Part shown: positions 31,458-34,452 of the stretch, in pieces | Layout of the letters: each line of letters starts with the position of its first letter | How positions within the stretch are numbered: the first letter of the stretch is position 1 | NCBI GenBank assembly: GCA_963838765.1 | Contig: CAWISU010000076.1 | Location: forward strand, 514 to 64,513 | Length of the DNA stretch: 64,000 nucleotides | Source of the DNA: an uncultured Acidobacteriota bacterium | GTDB taxonomy: Bacteria; Acidobacteriota; Terriglobia; Terriglobales; Acidobacteriaceae | Reading direction: 5' to 3' | Notes under the pieces: model-generated | Seen by the model: the letters and a program-made list of their open reading frames with translations, nothing else | Databases searched by the model: none | What the model was told of the DNA's origin: nothing | Translations under genes and position numbers: made by a program

Positions 31458-31604
31458 GAGCTGGTTGCAAGATTTCGCGTATTTAGGTTCAGCACCTGGG
31501 CGAGTCTTCTCCTGTTGCGAGCTTCGTGCGTCCGGGCACGAGGCGCAAACAAAGCGCATTGCCACTTTTCCAGAATTGGTACCGAGTTCATTGTTCGTTT
31601 CTGG

Positions 31605-31730
31605 GTACCCCCCCTCCCCCCGGTTATCTCGCAAAATCTAGAAAACAAAAGATTTATTTTACCACTATGTGCTAAATCTTTGAGTTTAGAGGAGTTACGG
31701 GCAAAATCTAGAGAACATGGGAGTTATGGC
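31605..31730. repeat. dispersed repeat, copy A (C-tract element)
   Basis: The element starts with the tract ggtaccccccctcccccc. It then contains ..aaatctttgagtttagaggagttacgggcaaaatctagagaacatgggagttatgg, which aligns by eye at roughly 70 percent with 42916-43030. An internal near-duplicate gcaaaatctaga(a/g)aac occurs at 31631 and 31701. Confidence 0.55.
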
Positions 31731-31931
31731 GGTCCGTGTCGGCATCGGGAGTTCCTTTTTGGGACTCGGTTCTACACCCCACGCACCGAACTGCGGTTCT
31801 CAATGGCTCCGGCGTGGGATATGCAGCACGCACCAAGCTCCATTCATTGCCTGGTCAGATTGTCAAAGAGCTATTATCCTGGAGATAATATAGTTCGAAT
31901 TAGTATTGTCCTATTTGCAGTTTGCAGTCAA

Positions 31932-32234
31932 CTATAAAGTATTCGATTTGGATGGGTCGACCTCTTGGTAGGGAGCGCAAAGACGCCCCTTCCGCCAGCC
32001 CTCAAAATCCGCAAGGACTTCCTTCTCCGAAATGCCACGGCGCTTGATCTGGCGGGCGATTTCGCTGGTCAACATGGCAAACAGTTCGCGGGTCAATTCT
32101 CCCGGCAACGAATCCTTCTGCAAGGGAAAAAACACGCCCGCGAGCCTTCCCCGCCGCGTCACCAGAATCGGGTCTTTGGAGCGCAGCATTCCCGTAGCCT
32201 TGTCCCGAAATTCCCGCACCGTGCTGGTCTTCAT
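31932..32234 (-). CDS. Phd/YefM-type type II antitoxin (100 aa), no cognate toxin gene downstream
   Basis: Internal ATG of ORF 31932-32408 with AGGTGA 6 nt upstream. The product begins MKTSTVREFRDKATGMLRSKDPILVTRRGRLAGVFFPL, a Phd/YefM-like N-terminus. Confidence 0.6.
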   Translation of the reverse strand: MKTSTVREFRDKATGMLRSKDPILVTRRGRLAGVFFPLQKDSLPGELTRELFAMLTSEIARQIKRRGISEKEVLADFEGWRKGRLCAPYQEVDPSKSNTL

Positions 32235-32505
32235 GTGGTCACCTGTGTAACCATTATAAAACACTTGAACGGTGGCAGGACGGACCATTCTTTGGGCAAC
32301 CCCGGCGGGTGGCTTGTCTATCCGCCGTCCACATTGGGCGCGGTCAACCACGAGGCTCAGATCTGAAATTAGCGTACCGCCCTGTGTCTCCAAAAACCGG
32401 AGAAGCAAGGGTGGGTCGCCTCGTGAATAGGATCAGAAAGAACGAATGGGCCAACCCCCCGGACCTCTCGTCAATCATTTAGAATGAATAACTTGGGGGT
32501 GAGAC

Positions 32506-32829
32506 TTGATGCATACCTTATATTTGCACGCCCCATATGACAAGAGCCAGCAAGGGGGTGCCTTCTATAAGGACTTCTACACAATCTTTCAGAATGGCAT
32601 TGGCCCCGATTACGCGATCTACTCTGGCCTGATAGGACTGATCAATCCAGGAACAAGAGTGGTCGTGTTTGATCGCAGCAGGCAACTACAGGCGGAGGGT
32701 GTGGTCAGCCACTTGGTCCTCAAGCCCTTCAATCGAATTCAGCGTTTCGATGTCCACATCCTCAATTTAGCTAGGGTTCCCTACAGCAATCCCCCGGGCG
32801 TCAACAGATGCGGTGTTGAGGTTTTGTAA
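32506..32829 (+). CDS. hypothetical protein, 107 aa
   Basis: ORF only, with an A/T-rich codon usage unlike its neighbours. It is convergent with the 463-aa gene, with a 37-nt gap. No motif was recognised. Confidence 0.45.
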   Translation: MMHTLYLHAPYDKSQQGGAFYKDFYTIFQNGIGPDYAIYSGLIGLINPGTRVVVFDRSRQLQAEGVVSHLVLKPFNRIQRFDVHILNLARVPYSNPPGVNRCGVEVL

Positions 32830-32866
32830 ACGCCGTAATCGGTTACTCCGCGTTCCATGCATGCGC

Positions 32867-34258
32867 TCAGTCAGTCTCCGCAGGTGCATCGTATTCGATC
32901 CGGCCAGTTTTTTTGAGCAATTCTCGTGCTGCGCCCTTGGTCAGGACGCCTTTCTTTACAGCCATGACGATCTTGTGAAGTTCTACCGTGGAGAGTATTC
33001 CAATATTCTGTTCTACCGCTGTGTCGGCGATGTGGGCATCCGCACCGGTGTAAACACGGGGACGCCTTGATGGATGATTCTCGATGTCATAGTTCAGCAC
33101 AAGAAGCCCGGCGATCTCCATGCCCAAGGGCAGCACAAGGTCGCTCTGCCTTTTGTAAAGCGTCATCATCCTGCCCAAAATGTCGTGAAACTCTTTCACC
33201 TTGGGGTTCTTGTTTACCGTCCCGGTCACCTCCGTAATCGCAAGGAACTTTCCATCGCTCACCCAAAAATCCTCCTTCCGAATAGCACTTTTGATCTTTT
33301 CGTCGATGTCCTCTACTTTGAAATCCAAGTATTCCAAAGCAGCCTTTACAACGCCCGACAGCCTTTGCTGCGGTAGGAGCTTAGGGTCTTCCTTCGCAAC
33401 AAGCAGCGCTCTGACAAGAGCATTCGTTTCTCCCAGAGTTTTCGCCTCTTTCCGCTTAGCCTCAATAAAGCTCTTTGCTTCCGCAACTTTTTCCTCTATA
33501 GCCTTGTTTATCGCCGTTTCCTCGGGCAACAGGAACTCTTCGCCTTCGAGCCAGTCGGTCCTGCGCTTGTCAGGGAACAAGGCCGGGACCAATTCCTCTA
33601 AGCATTCGAGTATCTGGACAACCGCTTGAGCAGTGTTTTTCATTTGGGGCAGGATGATGTAGTTTGGGATTTTTTTCTCCTCATACGTTGTTCCGTATCC
33701 CATCACCCAGTCGTAGTTCCTCGTAGACAGGACCGGAACATTCCAGATTGACCCGTGCTGCTCAGGCTCGAAGAACTGACCGACCAAAGATACCTGCGCC
33801 TTCAGATTGGTAAGCGTTTGGTGTAACTCGTCGATCCTCCAAGTACGGTTCTCGACCTCGCGCAAGGCAGAGACATTCTCGTCAGCATCAATCAGCTTCA
33901 CGAACGGAACACCGCCTTGAATTAGGAAGTCAAATCCTGCCTCTTCTCCTATGAACGACACCCTTACACGGGGTGGCGTGTCGAAAGAAGACATCGTTTT
34001 GACAAACCCAGCCTCACTGAGACCATTACGCGGGCTTGAGAACTTTTTATTCAGTTCATTGGATATACGAGAGTTGTAGAAGAGGATGTCGTATTCGTAA
34101 AGAGGATGAGGCGTCACGTAAGGAAGGTATTTCGTGCTCTGATTCCCCACACCGACAAAACCTTGCTCCACGTTGTAGCCGGCCTTCGTGATTGTCTCCG
34201 CTTCCCTGTCGGTAAAATTGAGCAGAATTATTCGGTGGGCAGTCTCGTTTGTGGTCAA
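32867..34258 (-). CDS. hypothetical protein, 463 aa (N-terminal alpha/beta domain, central coiled-coil, C-terminal PD-(D/E)xK-like region)
   Basis: A long clean ORF with no comparable ORF in other frames. See the findings for the domain reasoning. No known family was recognised from the sequence alone. Confidence 0.8.
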   Translation of the reverse strand: MTTNETAHRIILLNFTDREAETITKAGYNVEQGFVGVGNQSTKYLPYVTPHPLYEYDILFYNSRISNELNKKFSSPRNGLSEAGFVKTMSSFDTPPRVRVSFIGEEAGFDFLIQGGVPFVKLIDADENVSALREVENRTWRIDELHQTLTNLKAQVSLVGQFFEPEQHGSIWNVPVLSTRNYDWVMGYGTTYEEKKIPNYIILPQMKNTAQAVVQILECLEELVPALFPDKRRTDWLEGEEFLLPEETAINKAIEEKVAEAKSFIEAKRKEAKTLGETNALVRALLVAKEDPKLLPQQRLSGVVKAALEYLDFKVEDIDEKIKSAIRKEDFWVSDGKFLAITEVTGTVNKNPKVKEFHDILGRMMTLYKRQSDLVLPLGMEIAGLLVLNYDIENHPSRRPRVYTGADAHIADTAVEQNIGILSTVELHKIVMAVKKGVLTKGAARELLKKTGRIEYDAPAETD

Positions 34259-34452
34259 CTGTGAATTCCTCTACTTGATTCCAGAAAGCAAGTCATTCAG
34301 CGGAAACGCGCGAGGCTCGGGTCGTCCCTGCCCTCTCAAGAATTGTACACATGTCGACGGTTAGGGAAACGACCAGGCTAGGGCGCCCTCCAATTTGCCT
34401 CAAGCGCTTCGCGTCTCTAGAATAGAGATTACCTGTTTCCCCGAGACACAAT

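Follow-up and report, generated by a model that had tools for sequence, protein, structure and literature searches.

The interval immediately upstream of guaB in a 64,000-nucleotide stretch of DNA from an uncultured bacterium of the Acidobacteriota (contig CAWISU010000076.1 of assembly GCA_963838765.1; hereafter, the whole stretch is called the window) holds three open reading frames (ORFs) within positions 31460-34452, an AT-rich islet which a first-pass annotation had put forward as a candidate novel defence or conflict module. Our analysis points to a different arrangement, in which three independent accessory elements lie at a variable spot and the largest of them, a gene for a protein of 463 amino acids (aa), encodes a stand-alone nuclease and is a candidate methyltransferase-less defence gene; we give this reading as a whole an even chance of being correct. 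The coordinates of the three genes in the first-pass annotation agreed with the ORF list of the window, from which the following are taken:

31932-32234, minus strand: Phd-like ORF, 100 aa
32506-32829, plus strand: 107-aa ORF
32867-34258, minus strand: 463-aa ORF
34453-35949, plus strand: guaB

Predicted architecture of the 463-aa protein

Searches of Pfam, NCBIfam, PADLOC and PHROGs with the 463-aa protein returned nothing above threshold, and both single-sequence and profile searches against the PDB gave no meaningful match. The earlier statement that none of the three products matches a named system held for these four collections, with no match to the 463-aa, 107-aa or Phd-like proteins in PADLOC-DB v2.0.0 even at E ≤ 1, and the 463-aa protein could not be assigned to any clear housekeeping family. 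A structure was modelled using AlphaFold2 on an alignment of 49 sequences (mean predicted local distance difference test score, pLDDT, 88.9). Searching with this model in Foldseek, a check which had been proposed for the large uncharacterised protein, pointed to an effector-type nuclease architecture composed of three predicted parts:

33569-34258, minus strand: N-terminal domain spanning about aa 1-230, with an alpha/beta fold like that of class-I glutamine amidotransferases, pLDDT mostly >90
33374-33568, minus strand: linker that includes a long helical stretch at about aa 245-287 (DSSP helices H245-278 and H280-287 in the model)
32867-33373, minus strand: C-terminal nuclease domain of the FokI-like PD-(D/E)xK type, with E329/D330, E343 and K353 as the putative active site

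The modelled C-terminal domain has the alpha-beta-beta-beta-alpha-beta core fold of the PD-(D/E)xK superfamily. Its best Foldseek matches were the FokI cleavage domain, Nt.BspD6I and R.BspD6I (probability 1.0, E values 3.5e-4 to 4.5e-3) at a sequence identity of 14-16%, followed by weaker matches to the nuclease domains of Cap4, Can2, LmuA and McrC, while a library of viral models returned 'restriction endonuclease' and Mrr proteins. Conservation was assessed by aligning 96 diverse full-length members to a profile, and covariation over 205 sequences. Residues P204, W236, D319, E329, D330, E343, N389 and R399 are near-invariant in the 96 members; W236 is present in all of them, and D330 and E343 in at least 98%. 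Of the 96 members, 74 have a lysine at residue 345 and with it the canonical D…E-x-K signature. The subfamily of the window protein carries threonine or serine at this position (the window protein reads EVT at 343-345) together with an invariant Lys353 within the motif NPK. Across the 205 sequences, residue 353 is lysine or arginine in ~97% of cases when 345 is not a lysine and in 22% when it is, a covariation which suggests that the catalytic lysine of the window subfamily has moved from ExK at 345 to NPK at 353. Relocation of the catalytic lysine has precedents in the PD-(D/E)xK superfamily. Comparison of the gene with its counterparts in L001 and L005 (homologous loci are cited here by L numbers) gave ratios of nonsynonymous to synonymous substitution rates (dN/dS) of 0.10-0.13, a sign of purifying selection acting over ~50% sequence divergence.

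The N-terminal ~225 residues matched GMP synthase (7mo6), lin1909 (3fij) and 2vxo in Foldseek, with E values of 9e-4 to 9e-2 and template modelling (TM) scores to the target of at most 0.49. No cysteine or histidine is found among the invariant residues of aa 1-230, where the segment corresponding to the nucleophile elbow reads SFIGxxxG, and the domain is therefore not an amidotransferase; it is presumed to be a sensor or regulatory domain. The helical linker that follows could, at a guess, be a dimerisation element.

We infer that the 463-aa protein is most likely a stand-alone, methyltransferase-less DNA endonuclease directed against foreign DNA. In such a scheme the N-terminal domain would sense or gate the trigger, upon which the helical region would bring the nuclease domains together in pairs to cut invading DNA, DNA being the presumed target; the logic would resemble that of the type IV and END-type single-protein defence nucleases. 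A more far-reaching proposal, which we put forward tentatively and think somewhat less probable than its opposite, is that the family constitutes a new single-gene anti-phage or anti-plasmid system of ~1,100 clusters, in which a dead amidotransferase-fold sensor would license a FokI-like nuclease with a relocated lysine and in which other branches would have swapped the sensor.

Distribution and genomic neighbourhood of the nuclease family

Approximately 100 full-length homologues, 42-81% identical to the window protein, were retrieved, every one labelled hypothetical, and a profile search (E ≤ 1e-3) extended the family to 1,125 clusters at 50% identity. The distant members (440-640 aa) share only positions ~195-455 and differ in their N-termini. 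The family occurs mainly in soil Acidobacteria, with distant members on cyanobacterial plasmids and in other phyla. Among 185,579 species-representative genomes, only eight carry the gene; these comprise Acidobacteriaceae, Terriglobales and other Acidobacteriota metagenome-assembled genomes (MAGs) together with one gammaproteobacterial MAG (31% identity). The copy in one of the eight (L012, 7998-9428) is a pseudogene split into three ORFs. Decayed copies retaining only a ~636-bp match were also seen in L104-L106, beside a gene for an MntA-like nucleotidyltransferase. The GenBank phages yielded one remote match only (21.7% identity), as did a plasmid collection, in which the match was a hypothetical protein on Synechocystis pSYLB.

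The 270 ORFs neighbouring the gene at 94 loci formed clusters that reflect local synteny only, with at most five loci each, and all-against-all BLAST of the neighbours, over 11 and then 94 loci, detected no conserved partner. Homologues of the 107-aa and Phd-like proteins were absent from the 93 other nuclease loci; 94-aa ORFs downstream of the gene in L001 and L002 were considered as counterparts of the 107-aa gene and rejected for lack of any resemblance. The similarity between nuclease loci at the DNA level is limited to the ORF and no more than 50 bp around it.

This pattern could be expected of a selfish, free-standing homing-type endonuclease that cuts empty sites and is copied into them without benefit to the host. 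The confinement of homology to the ORF and its immediate edges would fit such a gene, as would the many contexts in which it is a lone gene flanked by unrelated housekeeping genes, the patchy distribution and the decayed copies (L012, L104-L106). However, the protein is large, and its conserved 230-aa non-nuclease domain and helical linker are unlike those of known homing enzymes; it has remained under strong purifying selection over ~50% divergence; no member was found in viral contigs, introns or inteins; and the many insertion contexts speak against one homing site. We therefore regard a homing endonuclease as an unlikely explanation.

Several of the neighbourhoods contain genes that are associated with mobile elements or conflict. 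A 67%-identical homologue lies inside a Mu-like prophage (L033:1-15395), with an S24 repressor, a Dam-type methylase, an AAA_16 protein, a GH108 endolysin and a terminase as prophage neighbours. In the gammaproteobacterial MAG (L013:2009-5086), the gene for a type IIG/ISP-like restriction-methylase of 1,025 aa (PADLOC E value 3e-227) comes 222 bp after the 31%-identical homologue and has the same orientation. The idea that the two represent subunits of a split restriction-modification (R-M) enzyme was rejected; the match of the 1,025-aa neighbour to type IIG models begins at residue 4, and the enzyme is therefore probably complete. In L010 the homologue adjoins a T5orf172/PDC-S57-like gene, and other neighbours include a PDDEXK_5 gene, an Unstab_antitox gene and an MntA-like gene, the last named on reading its sequence.

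A number of observations weigh against a function in defence. Neither the 463-aa protein nor ten of its distant relatives matched a PADLOC model (E ≤ 0.1 for the relatives, which also had no Pfam match above threshold). The fold match of the N-terminal domain is modest, with a TM score to the target of 0.49 and an E value of ~1e-3. The ExK lysine is absent from the window protein (EVT), and activity therefore rests on the inferred substitution by K353. The immediate neighbours of the gene are mostly housekeeping genes, such as prfC/cob genes, ThiC, PGDH, MutS, RNR and RuvA. Only about 8 of the 108 non-redundant immediate neighbours match PADLOC defence models, a count with no background rate for comparison, and the association with defence is therefore suggestive only. 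Finally, the viral contigs of IMG/VR hold no homologue of the protein.

Strain-specific replacement upstream of guaB

The closest relative available, the metagenomic contig L022, is colinear with window positions 24277-48215 at 92-97% nucleotide identity. Within the islet it differs from the window at two places, namely a PIN_2 toxin gene, described below, and the segment that carries the nuclease gene:

32373-34383: strain-specific replacement segment, 2,011 bp, 50.9% guanine plus cytosine (GC), carrying the 107-aa and 463-aa genes
34395-34423, plus strand: guaB promoter-like site TTGCCT-17-TAGAAT, from a consensus scan

The islet had been described as one unit. Only the segment 32373-34383 proved to be strain-specific, the portion 31460-32372 with the C-tract and the antitoxin gene being common to both. 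The homology with L022 stops at window position 32372 and resumes at 34384, which leaves 69 bp of shared DNA ahead of the guaB ATG at 34453. In place of the segment L022 has 839 bp (7545-8383) encoding an unrelated 253-aa protein; on reading, its sequence shows a hydrophobic segment at the N-terminus and ends in a tail that is PEP-CTERM-like. Direct or inverted repeats of at least 9 nucleotides were not found at the junctions of the segment, no integrase-sized or integrase-like ORF was present in the islet (ORF list and Pfam), and a scan of positions 29000-37000 detected no tRNA; the segment is therefore not a classical genomic island or integrative element. The 2.0-kb segment may have been swapped in most simply by recombination within the conserved flanks. 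The promoter-like site of guaB lies just inside the DNA shared with L022, and the replacement therefore left it intact. The earlier reading as cargo was supported for the 107-aa and 463-aa genes, which are accessory and specific to this strain: L022 has neither of them, and their clusters at 90% identity have one member for the 463-aa and two for the 107-aa protein, versus 188 for the flanking 180-aa protein and 79 for VanZ.

The left boundary of the islet, placed near 31460 at the C-tract, is not the edge of this recent event. It does mark the end of homology in relatives of ~80% identity (L015, L016 and L019), which stops near the 180-aa gene at about window 31351-31461. At the same position, to the right of a 144/156-aa gene, these relatives carry other conflict-type cargo (L019:12414-15592; L015/L016:10465-15966), comprising a TPR regulator, PDDEXK_5 proteins, a DUF433-containing pair and an AAA ATPase that matches AbiLi/AriA/HEC-01A models and has a small partner (AbiL/AriA-like). 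The site is therefore recurrently variable and, as judged from these sequence comparisons, what lies between guaB and the PilZ/Flp-pilin/180-aa gene cluster differs from strain to strain. The same three genes in native composition are not a common property of the relatives.

The composition of the islet had been taken as sharply lowered and foreign. The three 60-nucleotide spot counts on which this was based (20/60, 28/60 and 40/60) were exact on recount, and with a GC content of 51.4% positions 31460-34452 are the lowest-GC 3-kb stretch of the window (mean 55.6%, standard deviation of 3-kb windows 1.4%), an equally low value being found in only 0.5% of the 3-kb windows. The dip nevertheless amounts to 4 points and is modest and uneven, neither sharp nor strongly foreign. 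The Phd-like gene, at 57.1% GC, is at the native level, and the 107-aa and 463-aa genes are at 50.3%. In the 463-aa gene the deficit falls mainly on the second codon position (GC2 0.35), because the protein is rich in lysine, glutamate, isoleucine and asparagine, and its GC at the third codon position (GC3) is 0.61 versus 0.61-0.70 in neighbouring genes.

These data also bear on whether the 463-aa protein might be an accessory nuclease that serves DNA repair, recombination or another cellular process and has nothing to do with conflict, in which case the islet would be ordinary strain variation in gene content. The mostly housekeeping neighbours (MutS, RuvA, RNR, ThiC, RF3), the lack of a match to any defence model and the modest deviation in composition are compatible with such a role. 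On the other hand, no more than 8 of 185,579 species genomes carry the gene, L022 lacks it despite 92-97% identity, no genomic partner or operon is conserved around it, and some of its copies lie within a prophage or next to R-M, toxin-antitoxin and defence-candidate genes. A variable N-terminus joined to a conserved nuclease is, moreover, typical of conflict proteins. A purely cellular role for the 463-aa protein is in our view improbable.

Remnant of a toxin-antitoxin pair

The first gene of the islet is best understood by comparison with its orthologue in L022, and the relevant features are as follows:

31932-32234, minus strand: orphan Phd/YefM-type antitoxin gene, its C-terminal tail altered by loss of the downstream toxin gene
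31960-31982: deletion scar, ~22 nucleotides where L022 has a 420-bp PIN_2 gene

The protein matched the Pfam family PhdYeFM (PF02604) with an E value of 0.066 and 13.4 bits, below the cut-off of 29.8, and its L022 orthologue with an E value of 0.044. The Phd/YefM identity assigned to it is thus sub-threshold by Pfam; it finds support in L022, where the orthologue is paired with a PIN_2 toxin. The window protein is 96% identical over 84 aa to this L022 protein of 109 aa, the end of whose gene is overlapped by a gene for a 138-aa PIN_2 toxin (Pfam E value 3.9e-25; L022 6727-7146, 420 bp). The window has only the scar where the toxin gene would be, homology resuming at 31982 (L022 7147), and the last ~7 residues of the antitoxin have been exchanged for 16 unrelated residues. 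The earlier observation that no toxin ORF lies downstream was correct, and the PIN_2 gene of L022 is without a counterpart in the window. The synonymous divergence (dS) of the antitoxin gene from L022 is 0.18 and equals that of guaB, and the antitoxin was therefore inherited together with the flanks; its dN/dS is 0.09. The motifs AGGTGA and TATAAT can be read 5' of its ATG. Going by the alignment with L022, the orphan antitoxin is the leftover of a decayed Phd-type/PIN_2 pair from which the toxin gene was deleted.

A Phd-like gene near the nuclease gene raises the question of whether the nuclease might supply the toxic activity in a toxin-antitoxin or abortive-infection unit and be restrained by the neighbouring Phd-type antitoxin. 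In L004 (7212-7834) and L005 (7047-7663), a Phd-PIN pair indeed lies directly 5' of the nuclease homologue on the same strand. The outer flanks of the two loci are different, and since Phd, PIN and nuclease have diverged to a similar extent (50-57%), the three may have moved as a block. However, the Phd genes of L004 and L005 already have their own PIN toxin; BLAST gave no hit between these and the unrelated Phd-like protein of the window, whose orthologue has PIN_2 as its partner in L022, a contig lacking the nuclease; and most of the 94 loci lack an antitoxin-like neighbour. A toxin restrained by a Phd-type antitoxin is hence a highly improbable identity for the nuclease.

The non-coding stretch which separates the antitoxin gene from the 180-aa gene belongs to the same shared DNA:

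31458-31931: non-coding stretch after the 180-aa gene, with a C-tract at 31606-31621 and a 27-nucleotide direct repeat inside

It is 93.7% identical to L022 as far as window position 31960, lies outside the strain-specific segment and matched no Rfam family. The two copies of the repeat (31631-31657 and 31701-31727; GCAAAATCTAGA[A/G]AACA…) are 81% identical and 70 nucleotides apart, within AT-rich sequence that has been kept in L022.

The putatively PUA-like 107-aa protein

The second gene encodes 107 aa if translated from TTG at 32506, or 106 aa from ATG at 32509, the start used by its homologues. There are 29 of these, all of ~106 aa and 52-89% identical, and nothing above threshold was found for the protein in Pfam, NCBIfam, PADLOC or PHROGs. 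The AlphaFold2 model is a small beta-barrel (pLDDT 86.7, predicted TM score 0.82), for which the best PDB matches in Foldseek were all PUA-like yet weak, with MJECL36 (2p5d) at the top (probability 0.98, E value 0.013) and PH1033, YTH, ASCH and the N-domain of ATP-sulfurylase among the others. The product is a small conserved protein to which the model allows only a weak assignment of a PUA-like (ASCH/EVE/YTH-type) fold.

In L023-L025, members of this family are convergent to a complete, bona fide Pycsar pair. The L023 homologue is 75% identical, and the pair next to it (L023:6429-7646) consists of a PycC cyclase (PADLOC E value 9e-84) and a 2TM PycTM-type effector (E value 2e-55), the locus being flanked by rhodanese/rpsO-pnp on one side and a glyoxalase gene on the other. 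In L027 and L028 the homologue lies upstream of a 303-aa uncharacterised protein, and L026 ends just past the 106-aa gene. No nuclease was found in these other contexts of the family (L023-L028). The PUA-like 106-aa family, which elsewhere lies beside Pycsar, is a second unannotated family of interest.

The adjacency of the two genes could be read as a two-gene modification-dependent restriction system, in which the 107-aa protein would read modified bases and recruit or activate the nuclease in trans. Domains of the PUA superfamily (EVE, ASCH, YTH and SRA) are the usual sensors of modification-dependent nucleases (PMC6765204, PMC7641849), which accords with the PUA-like fold match of the 107-aa protein, and a gap of 37 bp separates the two genes within the strain-specific 2-kb segment. 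Against this, they are convergent and so not co-transcribed, the 107-aa homologue is present in none of the 93 other nuclease loci (0/93), its family occurs beside Pycsar (L023) or the 303-aa protein (L027) without the nuclease, and the PUA-like assignment is weak, with a best E value of 0.013. We consider a partnership of this kind quite improbable.

The grouping of all three genes into one module was consequently abandoned: the antitoxin is shared with L022 and derives from a PIN_2 pair, and the 107-aa and 463-aa genes are convergent and never occur together elsewhere. The compositional islet is better described as a mosaic, in which a decayed toxin-antitoxin pair inherited with the flanks adjoins a recent 2-kb cassette swap immediately 5' of the intact promoter-like site of guaB, and adjacency should therefore not be read as a functional module. 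Each of the alternatives considered for the nuclease is less well supported than a stand-alone enzyme acting against foreign DNA.

Other differences from L022 and a repeat protein in the window

Two further differences between the window and L022, each of a single gene, were recorded, with the proteins described by reading of the sequence only. At 27772-28636, the window encodes a 250-aa protein (27845-28597, minus strand) with a glycine motif, VDVGCGAG, like that of class-I S-adenosylmethionine-dependent methyltransferases, and at 43140-44655 a 233-aa multi-pass membrane protein (43475-44176, minus strand) with the motif RHPIYTG. Positions 28633-29847 encode a 404-aa secreted protein composed of tandem repeats of ~50 aa (…GNLYGTTxxGGxxGxGTVFKL…), the DNA repeats of which cross-match at 65-72%.

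Comparison with known systems

The antitoxin remnant resembles the Phd/YefM-PIN (VapBC-like) pairs in that its L022 orthologue overlaps a PIN_2 gene in antitoxin-then-toxin order, and departs from them in that the toxin gene is gone from the window, the tail of the antitoxin is altered and the Pfam match is below threshold.

In its architecture the 463-aa protein, a predicted nuclease of the restriction-enzyme fold, is unusual and unannotated, and it is not categorically new. A literature search for the combination of a glutamine-amidotransferase-like domain with PD-(D/E)xK returned nothing relevant. FokI-type type IIS enzymes provide the best structural match to the C-terminal domain, likewise keep the cleavage domain separate, and share the D…ExK signature of the wider family. 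They differ in that the N-terminus of the 463-aa protein is glutamine-amidotransferase-like, with no DNA-recognition domain of the FokI kind, and its lysine is at NPK. No methyltransferase gene was found within 31460-34452 (ORF list and Pfam), and among the 108 non-redundant immediate neighbours of the family an R-M methylase occurs only in L013, inside the complete type IIG enzyme.

Type IV and other modification-dependent enzymes (Mrr, MspJI and the PUA/EVE fusions) are similar in being solitary nucleases without a methyltransferase, in the Mrr-type structural matches and in the putatively PUA-like protein encoded next door. In contrast to these enzymes, the 463-aa protein has no fused modification-reading domain and no Pfam Mrr_cat match, and the PUA-like neighbour is not a conserved partner. 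Cap4, Can2/Card1 and LmuA, which were among the weaker Foldseek matches, also combine an N-terminal alpha/beta sensor-type domain with a C-terminal PD-(D/E)xK domain. However, cyclase, CRISPR and SMC partner genes are lacking nearby, the PADLOC effector models are silent, and the N-domain matches of the 463-aa protein are not SAVED or CARF.

The nearest functional precedent, and one for an anti-phage role of such proteins, is provided by the END nucleases, such as END-PaCF1, which are methyltransferase-less, type IIS-like and sensor-fused enzymes that restrict hypermodified phages, and are defined by an inactive Endonuclease III domain fused to a nuclease (PMC12191111). An Endonuclease III (HhH-GPD) domain was not detected in the 463-aa protein, either by Pfam at E ≤ 1 or among the top Foldseek hits, and the protein is therefore not an END nuclease; the domain order is also different and no sequence relationship was detected. 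The two have in common a single protein that joins a sensor-type domain to a cleavage domain, the lack of a methyltransferase and a location in variable or defence regions. Should the nuclease family turn out to serve in defence, the known single-protein systems would gain a widespread, so far unannotated member whose sensor fold is unusual, and the theme of methyltransferase-less type IIS-like nucleases would be extended.

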